DNA from: Candidatus Woesearchaeota archaeon
GTDB taxonomy: Archaea > Nanobdellota > Nanobdellia > Pacearchaeales > GW2011-AR1
Direction: 5' to 3'
Length of the DNA stretch: 32,083 nt
Assembly: GCA_964421685.1 (NCBI GenBank)
Contig: CAYQXU010000002.1
Location: 1 to 32,083, forward strand
Shown: positions 4,807 to 14,231 of the stretch, piece after piece
How positions within the stretch are numbered: the first letter of the stretch is position 1
Layout of the letters: the number at the start of each line of letters is the position of its first letter
Translations under genes and position numbers: made by a program
The notes under the pieces: generated by a model
The model's input: only the letters and a program-made list of their open reading frames with translations
Database searches by the model: none
Told to the model about the DNA's origin: nothing

Positions 4807-5106
4807 ATGGAAATATGTCCAAAGTGCGGCTTGCCAAAGCAAGCTTGTGTATGCGAGCAGATTGTAAAAAGTTCGCAGAGGATAAAGGTAACGACCGAAA
4901 AAAAAAGATATGGAAAGATCGTTACTATGGTAACAGGGTTCGACAGCGGCATTGATGTAAAGAAAATCGCAAAGGCTTTGAAAAATGAGCTCGCTTGCGG
5001 CGGAACTTATAAAAATGGCGCGATTGAACTACAAGGAGACCACAGCAAAAAGATTAAAGGTTTGCTGGTTGAAATGGGCTTTGATGAAGAATCTGTAAGC
5101 GAATAA
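4807..5106 (+). CDS. sui1: Translation initiation factor aSUI1 (eIF1 homologue)
   Basis: N-terminal zinc knuckle CPKCGLPKQACVCE followed by a SUI1 fold region (KRYGKIVTMVTGF...LKNELACGGTYKNGAIELQGDH). Confidence 0.9.
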   Translation: MEICPKCGLPKQACVCEQIVKSSQRIKVTTEKKRYGKIVTMVTGFDSGIDVKKIAKALKNELACGGTYKNGAIELQGDHSKKIKGLLVEMGFDEESVSE

Positions 5107-5136
5107 ATACACAAAACGGCATTTTGAAAAAATAAA

Positions 5137-5490
5137 ATGGAAAAGAAAGAAAGAAAGCAGAAGGAAGCAGCTAAATCAGCTGAAGCTAGATGCAATGATA
5201 TTGACTGTCAGATCCATGGAAAATTGAAAGTTAGAGGGAAAACATTTGAAGGATCAGTCATTAAAAAGTTTCCAAGAAGGATTACAATAGAATTTCAAAG
5301 AATGGTTTATGTCAGAAAATATGAACGGTACTCAAAATCAAAAACTAAGTTACACGCTAGGCTTCCAGAGTGCATGAAAGATCAAATTAATGTTGGAGAT
5401 TATATAATGATTCAAGAGTGCAGGCCTTTAAGCAAGATAATTCATTTTGCAGTTATCAAGAAAATAAAAGACAAGAGGGATTTGAAATGA
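5137..5490 (+). CDS. rps17: 30S ribosomal protein uS17
   Basis: GKTFEGSVIKKFPRRITIEF...YERYSKSKTKLHAR...GDYIMIQECRPLSK matches the S17 OB-fold pattern. It lies immediately upstream of L14. Confidence 0.9.
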   Translation: MEKKERKQKEAAKSAEARCNDIDCQIHGKLKVRGKTFEGSVIKKFPRRITIEFQRMVYVRKYERYSKSKTKLHARLPECMKDQINVGDYIMIQECRPLSKIIHFAVIKKIKDKRDLK

Positions 5491-7001: not shown

Positions 7002-7504
7002 TGACAAAAAATAATGTTATGAGAAGTGTGGCTATTGAGAAAGTAGTTTTAAGTGTTGGTGGAACAACTGATTATTTGGAAAAGGGGGTTAAACTTTTAA
7101 AGCTAATAACTGGGAAAAATCCTGCAAAAATGATGTCAAGGAAAAGAATTCCAACTTGGAGCGTTAGGCCAAAATTAGAGGTAGGGGCCGTAATCACAGT
7201 GAGGAAAAATTTTGAAGACTTGTTAAAAAGATTTTTAGTTACTAAAGACAATGCGCTTAAAAAAAAGCAGATAAGCGAAAACAACTTTTCATTTGGAGTA
7301 AAGGAATATATAGAAATTCCAGGTATGGAATATCAAAGAGACATTGGAATAATGGGATTTGACGTTACTGTTGTTTTCAAAAGATCTGGAAGAAGGGTGC
7401 AAATAAGAAAGGTAAAGCAGGCAAGAATTCCTAAGAGGCAGGTGATTTCGAAAGAAGAAATAATCAAATTTATGGAGGAAAAGTTTAATACTAAATTCAA
7501 ATGA
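7001..7504 (+). CDS. rpl5: 50S ribosomal protein uL5
   Basis: [10 protein letters not shown]..., [29 protein letters not shown] is L5-like. TAATG junction with rps4e. Confidence 0.93.
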
Positions 7505-7731
7505 CAGCAAGTGATTGGAAAAAAATATTAAAACAATTGAAAAGTAAACCTGCAGTGAGAGAGAAATTCCTGAAACATTGCAAACCAAAAGACAGAAATA
7601 CTGGAATTGCCCTGCAAAAGTGTGAACGGTGTGGAAGATTTGGAGCACATATAAAATCATATGGATTAAATTTATGCCGACACTGCTTCAGAGAGATCGC
7701 TGAAGAAATCGGGTTTAAAAAATATAGCTAG
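7501..7731 (+). CDS. rps14: 30S ribosomal protein uS14 (zinc type)
   Basis: [25 protein letters not shown] zinc-ribbon core. ATGA overlap with rpl5. It looks roughly 20 aa longer at the N-terminus than the typical archaeal S14 as I remember it. Confidence 0.9.
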
Positions 7732-7739
7732 GAGAAAAA

Positions 7740-8120
7740 ATGTCACAAGATATAGTTGCAGATGCATTAAATATGATAAATAATGCGAAGAAATCAGGAA
7801 AGGAAAATGTAATCATTAATAGAATTTCTAATTTATTAATTGAAATTTTAAAAATTATGAAACAGAAAGGCTCAGTTAAAAAATATAAGATTGACAGTAA
7901 GGAAAAAACGGTAGAGATAACAATAGGTAATCTGTTTGAGTGTAAGGCAATAAAACCCAGGTTTACAGTTGACAGGGATCAGATAGAAAAATATAGGAGA
8001 AGGTATCTTCCTTCTAGAAAGATAGGAACAATAATAATTTCAACAAACAAGGGCTTAATGACACACGAAGAAGCGGGACAAGAAAAAATTGGAGGATGCT
8101 TAATTGCTTACTTCTACTAA
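7740..8120 (+). CDS. rps8: 30S ribosomal protein uS8
   Basis: DIVADALNMINNAKKSGK at the N-terminus and GGCLIAYFY at the C-terminus are typical of S8. AGGAG lies upstream. Confidence 0.93.
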   Translation: MSQDIVADALNMINNAKKSGKENVIINRISNLLIEILKIMKQKGSVKKYKIDSKEKTVEITIGNLFECKAIKPRFTVDRDQIEKYRRRYLPSRKIGTIIISTNKGLMTHEEAGQEKIGGCLIAYFY

Positions 8121-8121
8121 A

Positions 8122-8664
8122 ATGAGAAAAAAATTATTCAAGGAAATTGAAATTCCGGAGCAAATTGAAATAAAAATAGAAGACAAGATGGTAGTTGTAA
8201 ATGGGCCAGAAGGAGAAAATAAGAGAGAATTTAAGCTTGGAAAGTTAGAATTTAGAAAAGAGGGAAACAAGATTATTATAGGCTATGAAAAAGCAACTAA
8301 AAAGGAAAAGAAAACGATGAATACCACTATAGCACATATTAAAAATATGATAAACGGCGTTCAGAAAAAGTTTGAATATAAACTTAAAATATGCTTTAGC
8401 CACTTTCCGTTTACTGTTGAAATAAGCGGAAATGAGGTAAAAATTAAGAATTTTTTGGGTGAAAAATCCCCAAGGTTGATGAAAATTCCTGATGGAGTCG
8501 ATGTAAAATCTGATAAGGAGATTGTCGATGTTAGATCTTGTGACAAAGAATTGGCTGGCAAGGTAGCGGCTGATTTTGAAAGAGCGACAAAAATAAGAAA
8601 TAGGGATAGAAGAATCTTCCAAGATGGACTTTATATTATTTCTAAAGCAGGGAGTGAAATCTAA
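8122..8664 (+). CDS. rpl6: 50S ribosomal protein uL6
   Basis: L6 two-domain pattern (IPEQIEIKIEDKMVVVNGPEGE..., FPFTVEISGNEVKIKNFLGEK). I chose the ATG at 8122, which gives the TAA-A-ATG junction seen elsewhere in the operon. The TTG at 8104 in the ORF track would overlap rps8. Confidence 0.92.
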   Translation: MRKKLFKEIEIPEQIEIKIEDKMVVVNGPEGENKREFKLGKLEFRKEGNKIIIGYEKATKKEKKTMNTTIAHIKNMINGVQKKFEYKLKICFSHFPFTVEISGNEVKIKNFLGEKSPRLMKIPDGVDVKSDKEIVDVRSCDKELAGKVAADFERATKIRNRDRRIFQDGLYIISKAGSEI

Positions 8665-8665
8665 A

Positions 8666-9070
8666 ATGCCTAAATTCTTAAGACGAAACTGGAATAGGCA
8701 CTCTAAACTAGGAAAAAGAAGGAAAAAGAAAAAAGTTTGGAGAAGACCTACTGGAAGGGATAATAAAATGAGAGAGAAAAGAAAAGGCTATGCACCAAGT
8801 GTAAGTATTGGATATAAACAAAATAAAGGTCAACGGGGTAAATTAAATGATAAAAAGCCAGTGTTAATTATGAACTTAAAAGATCTTTCTAATTTGAAAA
8901 AAGATCAAGTTGGATTAGTAGGAAATGTTGGGAGGAAGAAGAGAATGGAAATAGTTAAAAGGATTAAGGAAATGAATGCTAATATTTGGAATATAAAAGT
9001 TGAGAAGTTCATAAAGGAAATGAAACTTTTAGAAAAGACTTCTAAAAAAACAATAGGGGGAGAAAAATGA
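8666..9070 (+). CDS. rpl32e: 50S ribosomal protein eL32
   Basis: PKFLRRNWNRHSKLGKRRKKKKVWRRPTGRDNKMR is the L32e signature region. The ATG at 8666 gives a TAA-A-ATG junction with rpl6. The upstream ATG at 8624 would overlap rpl6 by 41 nt. Confidence 0.9.
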   Translation: MPKFLRRNWNRHSKLGKRRKKKKVWRRPTGRDNKMREKRKGYAPSVSIGYKQNKGQRGKLNDKKPVLIMNLKDLSNLKKDQVGLVGNVGRKKRMEIVKRIKEMNANIWNIKVEKFIKEMKLLEKTSKKTIGGEK

Positions 9071-9480
9071 ACTTAAAGAAGAAAAAATTATTGGCAGTTA
9101 GAGTTTTAGGAGCTGGAAAAGAGCGAATTGTATTTGTAAAACCAAGACTTGATGAAATTAAGGAAGCTATAACTAAGCAAGACATAAAAGACCTGCATAA
9201 AAGTGGCGCAATCATAATAAAAAATATTGGGGGCAGGAAAAAATCAGTAAAAAGAAAGAGGAAGAGAAGTGTTGGAAAAGTAAAGAAGATTCCAGACAAT
9301 AGGAAAAGAGTTTATATAATATTGACCAGAAAATTAAGAAACTATATACAAGAAGCAAAGAAAAAAGGAGAACTAAATTATGAAGATGTCAAAAAATTGA
9401 GGAACAATATAAGGAATAGAATGTTTAGGAGTAAAGCACATTTAAAGGAGCAAATAAAGGAAATGAAAAATGAAAAATGA
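9067..9480 (+). CDS. rpl19e: 50S ribosomal protein eL19
   Basis: KKKLLAVRVLGAGKERIVF...ITKQDIKDLHKSGAIIIK matches L19e. ATGA overlap with rpl32e. Confidence 0.92.
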   Translation: MNLKKKKLLAVRVLGAGKERIVFVKPRLDEIKEAITKQDIKDLHKSGAIIIKNIGGRKKSVKRKRKRSVGKVKKIPDNRKRVYIILTRKLRNYIQEAKKKGELNYEDVKKLRNNIRNRMFRSKAHLKEQIKEMKNEK

Positions 9481-9943
9481 AGAAATGATGAAAGAATTGG
9501 AAGATAAATTTTCAAAAATGAAGAAAGAACTTGGCTTAAAAACCAGCCTGGATGACTTAGATAGAAATTTTTATCTAAAGGACTACATACTTAAAGAAGG
9601 ATTTATTAGTGAAAATTTAATCAGGCAGGTAAGCTATAGAATTGTCGAAACATTCATGAGCTGGAACGAATATCTTCATAGTTTAATAATGCCAAACCCC
9701 CAAAACATGTTGAACTTGAGTGAAAGCAAAGTTTTAAGTCAGGAGGACAAAAAAGAGATAACTGAATTGATAAAGAAGGGAATGGAAATAGGCAGCAGAA
9801 ATAGTGTTATAAATTTATCTCGAAATAAAAAACAAGAAACTATGTTAATAGAAGATGCCGTCAAGCTTTGGGAAACTGAATTTAAACCAGAACTAAGCAA
9901 AATCATGACAAAAATAAATAAAGAATGGAAAGAATCTGGATAA
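9470..9943 (+). CDS. Uncharacterised 157-aa protein embedded in the ribosomal-protein operon
   Basis: A 157-codon open frame in AT-rich, stop-rich DNA. It overlaps the rpl19e end by 11 nt and ends 4 nt before rpl18 (TAA TAA A ATG). I recognise no motif. It looks helical and about charge-neutral. Confidence 0.75.
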   Translation: MKNEEMMKELEDKFSKMKKELGLKTSLDDLDRNFYLKDYILKEGFISENLIRQVSYRIVETFMSWNEYLHSLIMPNPQNMLNLSESKVLSQEDKKEITELIKKGMEIGSRNSVINLSRNKKQETMLIEDAVKLWETEFKPELSKIMTKINKEWKESG

Positions 9944-9947
9944 TAAA

Positions 9948-10490
9948 ATGAAAACAATCAAGAGAAGACGAAGGGAAGGGAAAACAGACTACTCAAGGAG
10001 GATTAAAATGCTTAGTGGCGGGACTCCTAGACTTGTTTTCAGAAAAACTAACAGGTATATTGTTGCACAATATTTAATCAGTAAAGAAGCAAAAGATGAA
10101 GTTAAAATTGGAGTCACATCTAAAATTTTATTAAATTATAAATGGCCAAAAGAAGCTGTAGGAAGCTTAAAGTCAGCTACAGCTGCTTATCTTATAGGGC
10201 TTCTAATTGGAAAAAAGATAGTTGCAAATAATTTGGAAAAACCAATTGTTGATTTTGGAATGTATAGGATTCTGCCTAAATCAAAACCGCATGCTTTTAT
10301 TAAAGGAGTTATAGATTCCGGGCTTAAATTAGAAGATAAATCTGAAATGTTTCCTTCAGAAGAACAAATAGGTGGCAAATACTTAAAGAACAAAATAAAT
10401 TTTAAAGAAATTAAGTCAAACATAGAAGCTAATCTTTTAGAAAAGACTTCAAAAAAGTCTAAAGGAAAAACACTAAAACTGGATAAATAA
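9948..10490 (+). CDS. rpl18: 50S ribosomal protein uL18
   Basis: RRRREGKTDYSRRIKMLSGGTPRLVFRKTNRYIVAQ is the archaeal L18 N-terminal signature. Confidence 0.93.
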   Translation: MKTIKRRRREGKTDYSRRIKMLSGGTPRLVFRKTNRYIVAQYLISKEAKDEVKIGVTSKILLNYKWPKEAVGSLKSATAAYLIGLLIGKKIVANNLEKPIVDFGMYRILPKSKPHAFIKGVIDSGLKLEDKSEMFPSEEQIGGKYLKNKINFKEIKSNIEANLLEKTSKKSKGKTLKLDK

Positions 10491-10491
10491 A

Positions 10492-11358
10492 ATGACGAAT
10501 AGTAAAAAACAAGAATTTGAAGACACGAAGAAAACAGTAGAAGCCTACGGCACTTTTTCAGAAGATGAAGTAAAAGATACTGCAAAAAAAAGCGAGGAAG
10601 TTACAGAAGAGCTTCTTGAGAATCAAAACCGCTCTAATGTAAAGAACGCTGAAAACATTGATAAAGAAAAAATAGGAAGAAGGCCATTTGAAATAAAAGC
10701 TAGAGAAGAAACTGTTTTAGGCTGGAAAGTTAAAACCAAGCTTGGGAAGGATGTAAAAAATGGAAAAATAACTAATATAGATCAAATTCTTAACAGCAAG
10801 AAAAAAATTCTTGAGCCAGAAATAGTTGATTTTTTATTAAACCTTAAATCAGATTTAATCTCTATAGGGCAATCAAAGGGAAAGTTTGGAGGAGGAAAAA
10901 GAAGAGCTTGGAGGCAAACACAAAGAAAAACAGAAGAGGGAAATGTCCCAACTTTCTCGACTATGGCAATAGTTGGAGATGAAAGCGGGCACATTGGTTT
11001 TGGGACAGGAAAAGCTAAAGAGACTCTTCCTGCACGAGACAAGGCAATAAGAAAAGCAAAGCTAAATGTAATCCGTGTGGTGAGAGACTGTGCAGGGTTT
11101 GATTGTGCGTGCAGCGAATTGCATACTATTCCTTTTAAAGTAAATGGAAAAGCCGGCAGTGTGAGAATAACATTAATTCCAGCGCCGCAAGGAACAGGGC
11201 TTGTTGTTGGAAATGAATTAAAAAAAGTTTTGAAGCTTGTAGGTATAAAAGATGTGTATAGCAAGACTTTTGGAACTCAAAGAACCAGTTTTAATCTTAT
11301 TAAAGCCTGTATTGATGCATTAAAAAAAACAAATGTTAATTTAGAGGGAGAAAAATGA
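10492..11358 (+). CDS. rps5: 30S ribosomal protein uS5, with a roughly 50-65 aa acidic N-terminal extension
   Basis: S5 dsRBD and C-terminal domains (VGDESGHIGFGTGKAKE...AIRKAK, IPAPQGTGLVVG...). TAA-A-ATG junction with rpl18. Confidence 0.93.
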   Translation: MTNSKKQEFEDTKKTVEAYGTFSEDEVKDTAKKSEEVTEELLENQNRSNVKNAENIDKEKIGRRPFEIKAREETVLGWKVKTKLGKDVKNGKITNIDQILNSKKKILEPEIVDFLLNLKSDLISIGQSKGKFGGGKRRAWRQTQRKTEEGNVPTFSTMAIVGDESGHIGFGTGKAKETLPARDKAIRKAKLNVIRVVRDCAGFDCACSELHTIPFKVNGKAGSVRITLIPAPQGTGLVVGNELKKVLKLVGIKDVYSKTFGTQRTSFNLIKACIDALKKTNVNLEGEK

Positions 11359-12218: not shown

Positions 12219-13655
12219 ATGGGTTTCCAACAAATATTCAGTTTTATTCCTGAAGTTAAAAAACCTGACGAAAAAAAACTTGACTTTAAGACTAAACTAA
12301 AATGGACTCTAATTGTTTTGGGGGCTTTTTTTGTTCTTGCAAATATTCCTTTGTTTGGCTTGTCGGCTAACGCTTTATCTAGATTTGAATATCTTGCTAT
12401 AATTCTTGGTACTGATTTTGGAAGTATAATCTCGTTAGGAATAGGGCCTATAGTAATGGCTTCTATTATTCTGCAACTCTTAAGCGGGTCTGGAATACTC
12501 AATATAGACCAAACAACCCCTGAAGGCAAAAAATTCTTTCAAGGGTTGCAGACCTTGTTAGTATTCTTCTTCATAATTTTTGAATCAGCGATATATGTTT
12601 TAATGCAGGGATTGCAGGCAAATCCAGGATTTACCGGAATCGTCATATTTCAACTAATCTTGGGCGGCTTGGCAATTTTCTATATGGATCAAGTAACGCA
12701 AAAATGGGGCTTTGGTTCTGGAGTGAGCCTGTTCATTGCAGCAGGAGTCTCTTGGAGATTGATAACTAGCGGATTTCAGTTCATAAATCAGCAAGGAAGA
12801 AACTGCTTAGTCGACTTTAGCAATACTGCCTGCTCTGGAAAAGTTCTTGTCTTGATACAGTCAATAATCAATAAGTATCCTATTGAATTTTTATCTGCCC
12901 TAGCTGCAATAATTGCAACAGCAGTTATTTTCATGATTATTGTATGGGCTCAATCGTTAAAGGTTGAAATCCCTCTATCATTTGGAAGGTTAAGAGGCTA
13001 TAGTCTTAAATGGCCATTATCATTTTTCTACGCCTCAAATATTCCTGTTATATTAACTGCAGCACTAGTTGCCAATATACAATTATTCGGTGGACTAATA
13101 CAAAATACAGCGACTCCATGCTTACAAGGTCTAGCTTGTACTGGGACTGCAAAATTTGCATCTTATTTTTCTTTTTTGGGGAACTTTGTTAATGGAAGAG
13201 CTGTATCTGGTTTAGCATTCTGGATGGGATCAACAGACATACTTGATTTATTTATTAGAGGGGGATTCCTACCAAGATATCTTCTTCAAGGAGTTACGCA
13301 TATATTATTTTTTGTATTCTTTTCAGTAATATTCTCTATTTTTTGGGTCAAAACATCTGGAATGGATGCTAAAAAACAGGCACATAATATAGTTTCCTCT
13401 GGCCTTCAAGTATCTGGCTTTAGGCAGGACGAGAGAATAATTGAAAGTATCCTCGATAGATATATTATGCCGCTAACAGTAATGGGCGGGGCTGCAATAG
13501 GGGTTTTAGCTGCAACAACTGACTTGCTTGGAGCATTGGTTGGGGGAACTGCAATCTTGCTTGTAATTATGATTATGTATCAATTTTATCAGAATATTGC
13601 ACAACAGCATCAGATGGATATGAGCCCTGGATTTAGGAAATTTTTTAATAAGTAG
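12219..13655 (+). CDS. secY: Preprotein translocase subunit SecY
   Basis: 478 aa, about 10 hydrophobic segments, and an archaeal SecY/Sec61alpha-like N-terminus (IPEVKKPDEKKLDFKTKLKWT). Conserved position after rpl15. Confidence 0.95.
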   Translation: MGFQQIFSFIPEVKKPDEKKLDFKTKLKWTLIVLGAFFVLANIPLFGLSANALSRFEYLAIILGTDFGSIISLGIGPIVMASIILQLLSGSGILNIDQTTPEGKKFFQGLQTLLVFFFIIFESAIYVLMQGLQANPGFTGIVIFQLILGGLAIFYMDQVTQKWGFGSGVSLFIAAGVSWRLITSGFQFINQQGRNCLVDFSNTACSGKVLVLIQSIINKYPIEFLSALAAIIATAVIFMIIVWAQSLKVEIPLSFGRLRGYSLKWPLSFFYASNIPVILTAALVANIQLFGGLIQNTATPCLQGLACTGTAKFASYFSFLGNFVNGRAVSGLAFWMGSTDILDLFIRGGFLPRYLLQGVTHILFFVFFSVIFSIFWVKTSGMDAKKQAHNIVSSGLQVSGFRQDERIIESILDRYIMPLTVMGGAAIGVLAATTDLLGALVGGTAILLVIMIMYQFYQNIAQQHQMDMSPGFRKFFNK

Positions 13656-13661
13656 TTAAGC

Positions 13662-13669
13662 TTTAAATA
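13662..13669 (+). promoter_or_regulatory. Putative TATA box (TTTAAATA, preceded by C)
   Basis: Lies in the 36-nt secY/DUF106 gap, 22 nt upstream of the ATG at 13692. This spacing implies a leaderless or near-leaderless mRNA. Confidence 0.45.
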
Positions 13670-13691
13670 CAAAGTTCTCTACATAAAGCAT

Positions 13692-14231
13692 ATGGATAAC
13701 AAAAAAGGAAGCTTCAAACTTGTATTCATTGTGTTGATAATTTCTTTAGTAATAGCCTCTCTATGGAATAAAGTTTCTTGGATTAGCAAACCTATACATT
13801 CTGTCCTAGATCCTTCTCTAGGAGCTTTGCTTAATTGGAATCTTTTGATAGGAATGATAATTATTGTCGCGATTCTTAACTTGATAACAACCTTGATACA
13901 AAAATATACTACTGACCAAGAAACATTGAGGTCCATAAAACAAGAGCAAAAAGCGTTACAGGAGGAAATGAAGAGTCATAGGGATAATCCCCAAAAAATG
14001 ATGGAGCTGCAGAAAAAGAGCCTGGAGTTTATACCACAAACCATGAAGTTAAGTATGAGGTCGTTTACTTATACTGCTGTCCCGCTTATATTACTTTTTA
14101 GATGGTTCATTGATACTTTTAATGCTTTAGGCAACCCGAAGTTTTTAGGATTTTTAGGATGGATTTGGTTTTATCTTCTTTCGTCAATAATAATAAGCAG
14201 CATTCTCAGGAAGATTTTAAAAGTAGTTTAA
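13692..14231 (+). CDS. DUF106 / EMC3-TMCO1-like membrane protein (archaeal YidC/Oxa1-like insertase candidate)
   Basis: Three hydrophobic segments, with a charged coiled-coil between TM1 and TM2 (ETLRSIKQEQKALQEEMKSHRDNPQKMMELQKK). It occupies the usual archaeal position downstream of secY. Confidence 0.8.
   Translation: MDNKKGSFKLVFIVLIISLVIASLWNKVSWISKPIHSVLDPSLGALLNWNLLIGMIIIVAILNLITTLIQKYTTDQETLRSIKQEQKALQEEMKSHRDNPQKMMELQKKSLEFIPQTMKLSMRSFTYTAVPLILLFRWFIDTFNALGNPKFLGFLGWIWFYLLSSIIISSILRKILKVV

Follow-up and report, generated by a model that had tools for sequence, protein, structure and literature searches.

The archaeal S10-spc ribosomal super-operon is known to hold accessory genes that are co-transcribed with the ribosomal-protein genes, namely those of aIF1/SUI1, Rpp29/RNP1, SecY and adenylate kinase and, in Thor- and Odinarchaeota, that of Hsp20 (PMC10833476). 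Lineage-specific archaeal ribosomal proteins are also still being found, as exemplified by aS36 (DUF5350) in the Halobacteriota (PMC13454478). We analysed a 32,083-nt stretch of DNA from Candidatus Woesearchaeota archaeon (GenBank assembly GCA_964421685.1, contig CAYQXU010000002.1, positions 1 to 32,083 of the forward strand), referred to here as the window, in which a gene of 157 codons, designated X, lies between the genes of the ribosomal proteins L19e (eL19) and L18 (uL18). X is a genuine, lineage-specific gene, and its product is non-basic, all-helical and matches no described family. Neither lineage-specific accessory genes in ribosomal operons nor lineage-specific ribosomal proteins are new in themselves (SUI1, Rpp29, Hsp20 and aS36 being known already); what is new is the X family.

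Like the accessory genes of the S10-spc cluster, X is probably co-transcribed with ribosomal-protein genes. However, the former belong to recognised families and occupy fixed positions, whereas X constitutes an orphan family whose position varies by lineage: between L19e and L18, between L3 and L4, or outside the operon. X resembles aS36-type proteins, known from mass spectrometry and cryo-electron microscopy, in being small, single-domain and confined to one archaeal lineage; the aS36-type proteins went unannotated until ribosomes were examined (PMC13454478). X goes beyond these proteins in being encoded inside a ribosomal operon and in being conserved as strongly as ribosomal proteins. By contrast, the two are unrelated in sequence and fold, X is acidic where aS36-type proteins are basic, and X is only a candidate for a protein of the ribosome.

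Dedicated ribosomal-protein chaperones have been described in eukaryotes, and include Tsr2, Acl4 and Syo1 (PMC6131548, PMC4598080, PMC6648895). In archaea, all hibernation factors known to date consist of CBS and/or HPF domains (PMC13454478, PMC13324472). More specifically, HibA/AHA combines HPF/RaiA with CBS, and Sri/Dri has tandem CBS domains. X is similar to these factors in being a candidate non-ribosomal protein of archaea that binds the ribosome. However, X is all-helical, and a Pfam scan detected neither a CBS nor an HPF domain in it or in 129 family members. Moreover, a gene within a ribosomal operon would be expected to be expressed constitutively, unlike the stress-induced hibernation factors. 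A preliminary description of the locus, made from the sequence, had listed a hibernation-type factor among the possible roles of X; the known types are excluded by the lack of either domain.

Gene X and its place in the ribosomal super-operon

X occupies positions 9470..9943 of the + strand, stop codon included, and encodes 157 aa from an ATG start. This assignment is supported by the open reading frame (ORF), by homologs, by the ratio of non-synonymous to synonymous substitution rates (dN/dS) and by an AlphaFold2 model. Upstream, X overlaps the last 11 nt of rpl19e (9470..9480, +), which itself extends over 9067..9480 of the + strand (Pfam Ribosomal_L19e, E 1.4e-12) and ends with the stop codon TGA at 9478-9480. 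A stop-start overlap of this kind is typical of coupled translation. Downstream, X ends with GGA TAA TAA A ATG, the junction TAA TAA A ATG at 9941..9950 (+) leading directly into rpl18 (9948..10490, +; Pfam Ribosomal_L5e, E 3.3e-12), whose ATG begins at 9948. In the Pfam scans, X was flanked by L32e and L19e upstream and by L18 (L5e/L18p) and S5 downstream. The frame, which is present in the ORF list, and both junctions are as reported in the preliminary description.

The preliminary description had also proposed that X is co-transcribed with its neighbours and probably coupled to them. No terminator-like site was found on the + strand within 8500-10800, and the junctions are tight in relatives, as detailed below. 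Based on these two observations, we infer with good support that X is co-transcribed with the S10-spc operon and translationally coupled to its neighbours. A scan for bacterial-type promoters, a type of scan unsuited to archaea, yielded no more matches than expected by chance.

The product of X contains 27 K+R and 28 D+E, exactly the numbers previously counted by hand, and has a computed isoelectric point (pI) of 6.02. By contrast, 11 neighbouring ribosomal proteins are strongly basic, with pI values of 9.6-11.1. The acidic character extends to the family, for which the median pI is 5.8 (129 members). The window protein has no Cys and only one conserved His, and ends with ...EWKESG without an extension. 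By inspection, it contains no transmembrane or signal segment and no obvious catalytic or metal site.

In published S10-spc arrangements, the order L32e-L19e-L18 is uninterrupted in Asgard archaea and in other archaea alike, the complete DPANN genome AR10 among them (PMC10833476), in agreement with what had been assumed for the archaeal order. The insertion of X is therefore lineage-specific. In public metagenomes and GTDB species representatives, the order L32e-L19e-X-L18-S5 was found at ∼15 distinct loci in relatives (17 loci retrieved, of which a few are repeat copies of one sequence), the scans for relatives of X being narrow and covering 12 genome loci and 7 metagenome loci. X is thus present and conserved at the rpl19e-rpl18 junction of relatives, with one copy per locus. 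At these loci, X shares 46-61% identity with the window protein, which matches the range for L19e (54-64%) and L18 (51-59%). The spacing between the called genes of L19e and X is −4 to +4 nt in the relatives and −11 nt in the window, and the X-L18 junctions of the relatives overlap or lie a few nt apart.

A search of 5.8 billion proteins identified 38 homologs of X, of 140-164 aa and 46-68% identity. All are unannotated or labelled 'hypothetical', and the few organism names are those of Pacearchaeota, Nanoarchaeota and unclassified archaeal genomes. In a profile search of a 1.84-billion representative library, 585 clusters (50% identity) matched at E<=1e-3, including 99 at E<=1e-30; the few matches that carry organism names are from Pacearchaeota, Woesearchaeota or Nanoarchaeota. 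The best 150 of the 585 cluster matches are all <=200 aa long and none is fused to another domain. The N-termini of the homologs align, which supports the ATG at 9470. To evaluate selection, we used L012 and L016, the one pair of relatives close enough for dN/dS, which are 87% identical. In this pair dN/dS was 0.039 for X and 0.028-0.095 for seven flanking ribosomal-protein genes, all values being approximate with dS near saturation. These data indicate that purifying selection acts on X, whose ratio is not near 1, with the strength seen for ribosomal proteins.

The preliminary description had argued that an open frame of this length is unlikely by chance, and a naive estimate for 157 open codons (∼1e-6) agrees with the argument. 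However, the window also contains a 160-aa ORF antisense to S5 (10782-11264, −), along with other antisense ORFs of 100-136 aa, and these are probably artefacts of lysine-/glutamate-rich coding on the + strand. Length is therefore weak evidence in this DNA, and the occurrence of long spurious ORFs is the point in favour of X being a chance open frame in AT-rich DNA rather than a gene. It is conservation, not length, that establishes X as a real gene. Hundreds of homologs of the same length and the dN/dS of 0.039 effectively refute a chance frame, and the confident AlphaFold2 model, the conserved N-terminus and the conserved gene junctions also argue against it, such that we regard this explanation as vanishingly improbable.

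Family membership and predicted structure

Comparison of the single X protein with Pfam yielded only DUF1947 (PF09183; E 0.073, 13.7 bits versus a cut-off of 22.5), and comparison with NCBIfam yielded PRK14560, a model of a putative RNA-binding protein (E 0.0029, 17.4 bits versus a cut-off of 217). The same scans recognise all of the flanking genes. No ribosomal-protein family in Pfam or NCBIfam matched X or any of 129 members. Scanning these members gave no consistent family: the matches were to EF-hand_EFHB_C (14/129), DUF1947 (4/129) and PRK14560 (10/129), the latter two counted at E<1, and all were below the cut-offs. DUF1947 and PRK14560, which represent the N-terminal domain of archaeal PUA proteins related to Tma20/MCT-1, are the only named models that gave any match to X in its own right, and the match covers residues 87-147, corresponding to two long helices in the model. 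We rejected this identity as chance on the grounds that the scores lie far below the curated cut-offs, few members match and the family profile retrieves no such chain from the PDB. The label 'gas vesicle protein' of homolog P0205 and a GvpQ match of one member (E 0.011) were likewise judged to be noise.

To obtain a predicted structure, an alignment of 39 sequences was submitted to AlphaFold2. The resulting model is all-helical, as the preliminary description had suggested, with a predicted local distance difference test score (pLDDT) of 92.9 and a predicted template modelling score (pTM) of 0.88. It contains seven helices, comprising residues 2-21, 27-34, 36-43, 50-73, 80-87, 91-117 and 120-156. 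A member that is only 26% identical (P0180) shares this helix pattern in its own model (pLDDT 93.1) and has an additional C-terminal tail of low confidence.

Neither sequence nor fold related X to a protein of known structure. In the PDB, a sequence search with the single protein returned nothing above threshold, and profile searches with 39 and 129 sequences returned matches at chance level only (S20, E 0.09; a designed protein, E 0.009). Fold searches with Foldseek covered the PDB and BFVD, with significance set at E<=0.001. Two independent models gave best PDB matches of E 0.53 and 0.58, with template modelling (TM) scores <=0.46, to generic helical bundles, and one model searched against BFVD gave no match at the threshold. 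Consistent with the preliminary description, in which no family motif was recognised, Pfam, NCBIfam, the PDB (sequence and profile) and Foldseek thus gave nothing significant, and in particular no confident match to a housekeeping family. Overall, databases record the X family only as 'hypothetical protein', no model in the searched copies of Pfam-A and NCBIfam matches it, and solved structures include no relative. The one trace encountered in the literature is generic: a module described as common to Pacearchaeota and Woesearchaeota, which comprises 51 families of mostly unknown function (Castelle et al. 2021, PMC8204110), may include X.

We define family X as single-domain proteins of ∼150-175 aa with the seven-helix pattern, the motif W..[YF].H...[MLIV]P[NS]P......E and a C-terminal W. 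The window protein shows all of these features and matches the family profile with a value of 5.4e-66, although it is itself among the 129 sequences from which the profile was built. The most conserved segment, residues 65-86 (W-NEYLHSLIMPNPQNMLNLSES; 9662..9727, +), comprises the end of helix 4, a P-N-P loop and helix 5. Its pattern is W65-x2-Y-L-H70-x-L-I-M-P75-N-P-Q-N...E85-S, in which W65, Y68, H70, M74, P75, Q78, N79, N82 and E85 are invariant among close relatives. In 129 diverse members, P75 is retained in 98%, W153 in 95%, E85 in 92%, W65 in 89% and H70 in 80%; the window protein carries all five residues. Judging from this conservation, the W65/H70/P75-N-P77/E85 loop is likely a functional surface that makes contact with a binding partner.

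In 24/129 distant members, the C-terminus consists of a basic linker ending in an aromatic residue and Gly (...SYSG, ...FFG, ...MYG or ...YGGVS). Examples in the family alignment are P0103, P0135, P0159, P0180 and P0189, and AlphaFold predicts the tail to be flexible (pLDDT 53-73). In the archaeal stalk protein aP1, the C-terminal ...LFG recruits translational GTPases. The tail of the distant members resembles that of aP1 in form only, and no such stalk-protein-like tail is found in the window protein (9470-9943).

Genomic context of distant homologs

Family members that are 24-52% identical to the window protein lie outside the L19e|L18 junction. In a woesearchaeotal locus (L017), X is inserted between L3 and L4, a second junction of the same super-operon. 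Elsewhere, X neighbours genes of several functions, and in six loci (L023, L027-L030 and L032) it stands alone or beside unannotated ORFs. As the distant members sit away from L19e|L18, at L3|L4, beside LeuRS, GatD, eIF2alpha-Nop10, HIT, MsrB or thermosome genes or alone, the specific partnership with uL18 or the 5S ribonucleoprotein proposed in the preliminary description is weakened.

Several of these neighbours function in translation. X lies directly after the leucyl-tRNA synthetase (LeuRS) gene, with the alanyl-tRNA synthetase (AlaRS) gene opposite (L018), directly after GatD (L019), and at the end of the series L44e-S27e-eIF2alpha-Nop10-X (L020). In L021 and L026, X directly precedes the gene of a HIT hydrolase. 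Such positions, next to two synthetases and GatD, before HIT hydrolases in two divergent members and after eIF2alpha, would suit a role connected with tRNA or aminoacylation, such as that of an adaptor serving the aminoacyl-tRNA synthetases or the amidotransferase. However, acidity would be unexpected in a tRNA binder, the predicted fold is unlike the GatB/YqeY-type or anticodon-binding helical domains in the PDB, and each of these contexts was seen only once or twice. We consider such a role to be quite improbable.

The pairing with the HIT family recurs in detail: in both L021 (2301-3157) and L026 (3001-3918), a divergent X is followed on the same strand by a HINT-like hydrolase gene.

A second set of neighbours relates to protein quality control. 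In L024, X overlaps the 3′ end of a thermosome gene by 4 nt, in the vicinity of an FKBP gene; in L022, it overlaps the end of MsrB; and in L018, the gene that follows X encodes protein-L-isoaspartate methyltransferase (PCMT). These contexts raise the possibility that X serves proteostasis in general, for instance as a co-chaperone, holdase or protein-repair adaptor, and that it acts with the thermosome or prefoldin, or on nascent chains, and not on the ribosome. Residence in the ribosomal operon would then serve only to secure high constitutive expression. Such a role is also in keeping with the continuation of the window operon into SecY, EMC3/YidC-like and prefoldin alpha genes, with the suitability of an acidic helical bundle for basic or unfolded clients and with the insertion of Hsp20 in the same cluster of some Asgard archaea (PMC10833476). 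By contrast, no known chaperone is similar to X in sequence or predicted fold, only 3 of ∼12 contexts are of this kind, and the deepest and most stable context of X is between two ribosomal-protein genes. On balance, we consider a general proteostasis function a credible but unlikely alternative.

Other contexts have no link to translation; among them are RuBisCO/GGDEF, a metallo-beta-lactamase next to an Lhr helicase, MacB/FtsX, and TatD with HIT. X could accordingly be a housekeeping protein unrelated to translation that hitch-hikes in operons which, in a streamlined genome, are strongly expressed and tightly packed. The great variation in position and these non-translation contexts favour this explanation, and adjacency is less informative in gene-dense DPANN genomes; the existence of the 51-family module of mostly unknown function is also in keeping with it (PMC8204110). 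However, hitch-hiking does not readily account for two independent junctions inside the S10-spc cluster (L19e|L18 and L3|L4), for the L19e|L18 place and its junctions (overlapping, or a few nt apart) being retained in relatives of as little as 46% identity, or for the number of other neighbours that are translation genes. We give hitch-hiking a real but minor chance.

Possible function

In our tentative view, the data are best accommodated if X belongs to the translation machinery as a lineage-specific accessory, being made with the ribosomal proteins and acting via protein-protein contacts. It could be bound at the periphery of the ribosome or, alternatively, serve highly basic ribosomal proteins as an escort or assembly factor. 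We hold this role to be possible at somewhat less than an even chance. The more specific proposal that X is a new ribosome component in Pacearchaeota/Woesearchaeota, either peripheral and stoichiometric or obligatory for assembly, and has a helical fold absent from all solved structures, is doubtful.

According to the proposed mechanism, X, which is fixed between rpl19e and rpl18 in the clade of the window, would be transcribed with the S10-spc operon and probably coupled to its neighbours in translation. From this operon setting and from the sequence, we infer that X is co-transcribed, coupled and about as abundant as ribosomal proteins, and likewise how it binds and that it is linked to translation. 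The product would be a compact, soluble, acidic seven-helix bundle. Given its acidity, it would probably act by protein-protein contacts and not by binding rRNA, with the conserved loop as the likely site of contact.

Tsr2, Acl4 and Syo1 are acidic or helical proteins. As an acidic helical protein, X could similarly shield very basic ribosomal proteins, and it would be made next to its possible clients and probably along with them. X differs from the eukaryotic chaperones in having no sequence homology to them and a fold unmatched in the PDB; moreover, archaea have no nuclear import problem, and the clients of X are candidates only. Among solved structures, no chaperone or ribosomal-protein escort, including prefoldin, Hsp20, Tsr2, Acl4 and Syo1, was similar to X in sequence or fold.

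The occurrence of X at two different junctions of the ribosomal super-operon argues for a role in translation. According to a rough estimate, the probability that 2 of ∼12 independent contexts fall by chance inside a cluster of ∼27 genes is ∼0.04. The LeuRS (AlaRS opposite), GatD and L44e-S27e-eIF2alpha-Nop10 neighbours point in the same direction but are only suggestive, translation genes being a large share of such small genomes. The SUI1/aIF1 gene in the window operon and a GNAT acetyltransferase gene between L30 and L15 in a relative provide precedents for an accessory gene in this setting.

Several points weigh against an accessory role in translation. The binding of X to the ribosome is putative, and acidic proteins are atypical as core ribosomal proteins. 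The enrichment of translation genes among neighbours outside the ribosomal operon is statistically uncompelling (P ∼0.03-0.3, depending on the background assumed), and outside the main clade, non-translation contexts (MsrB, thermosome, HIT, unannotated small ORFs or stand-alone) make up about half of the independent ones. Finally, such operons also harbour SecY, EMC3/YidC-like and prefoldin alpha genes, and in Thor- and Odinarchaeota the cluster has received an Hsp20 gene (PMC10833476). Because genes of other functions are found there, operon membership alone does not define function.

Pacearchaeota and Woesearchaeota, which have extremely reduced genomes, rank among the uncultured archaea of highest abundance. 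The X family has so far been seen only in DPANN archaea of the Pacearchaeota/Woesearchaeota type, and the gene is essential-looking: X is probably important to the cell, as it is kept in hundreds of lineages of reduced genomes under selection like that on ribosomal proteins. Should X turn out to bind the ribosome or to escort ribosomal proteins, DPANN archaea would have their first described lineage-specific ribosome component, and X would exemplify gain, not loss, in a streamlined translation system. If X is a component of the ribosome, ultra-small archaea would have added lineage-specific ribosomal proteins while shedding other genes. In any case, a family of 585 clusters at 50% identity, with a confident predicted fold unmatched in solved structures, merits a name. 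X is useful as a marker gene for lineages of the Pacearchaeota/Woesearchaeota type and as a defined target for structural and interaction studies. DPANN genomes contain many conserved orphan families, and X is one well-defined, well-supported lead.

Other features of the window and of related operons

The archaeal S10-spc ribosomal super-operon is on the + strand of the window, where Pfam matches identify the genes in the order L3, L4, L23, L2, S19, L22, S3, L29, SUI1/aIF1, S17, L14, L24, S4e and L5, followed by S14, S8, L6, L32e, L19e, X, L18, S5, L30, L15, SecY, EMC3/YidC-like and prefoldin alpha. Apart from X, the exceptions to assignment by Pfam match are L29 (4601-4804) and L15 (11777-12217), which were identified from their position and length and from how Pfam annotates the corresponding genes of relatives. 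Neither an Rfam scan nor a tRNA scan of the window gave a match.

SUI1/aIF1 is one non-ribosomal translation factor already inside the operon; its gene lies between L29 and S17 (4807-5490), and the RNase P gene Rpp29/RNP1 is not at that place. Similarly, adenylate kinase is absent after SecY, which is directly followed by an EMC3/TMCO1(YidC)-like gene and then prefoldin alpha (12219-14231). The gene order of DPANN genome AR10 differs from that of the window in the places of Rpp29/RNP1 and adenylate kinase (PMC10833476).

Ribosomal operons of relatives contain other small ORFs, none of which is homologous to X. In L001, a 73-aa ORF is inserted between S8 and L6 (2482-2703). L003 has a 98-aa ORF between L30 and L15 (6244-6540) and a 169-aa ORF between L15 and SecY (7023-7532). 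L033 has a 70-aa ORF between L14 and L24 (268-480), and its GNAT acetyltransferase gene between L30 and L15 (6097-6564; 155 aa, Pfam E 6e-18) might encode a RimI-like enzyme. These are further lineage-specific inserts in the ribosomal operons of related DPANN archaea.

The uS5 protein of the window (10492-11358) is 288 aa long, which we take to be longer than is typical of archaeal uS5. Its S5 N-domain is preceded by ∼130-140 residues, the Pfam match starting at residue 141, and the first part of this N-terminal extension is markedly acidic. Most relatives have a uS5 of similar length (248-290 aa).

The listed starts of two genes upstream of X are probably too far upstream. These are the TTG at 8104 for L6 (8104-8664), which overlaps S8, and the ATG at 8624 for L32e (8624-9070), which overlaps L6. 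Internal ATG starts are suggested for both, as L6 is ∼180 aa and L32e 117-135 aa in relatives and the Pfam match of L32e begins at residue 16.

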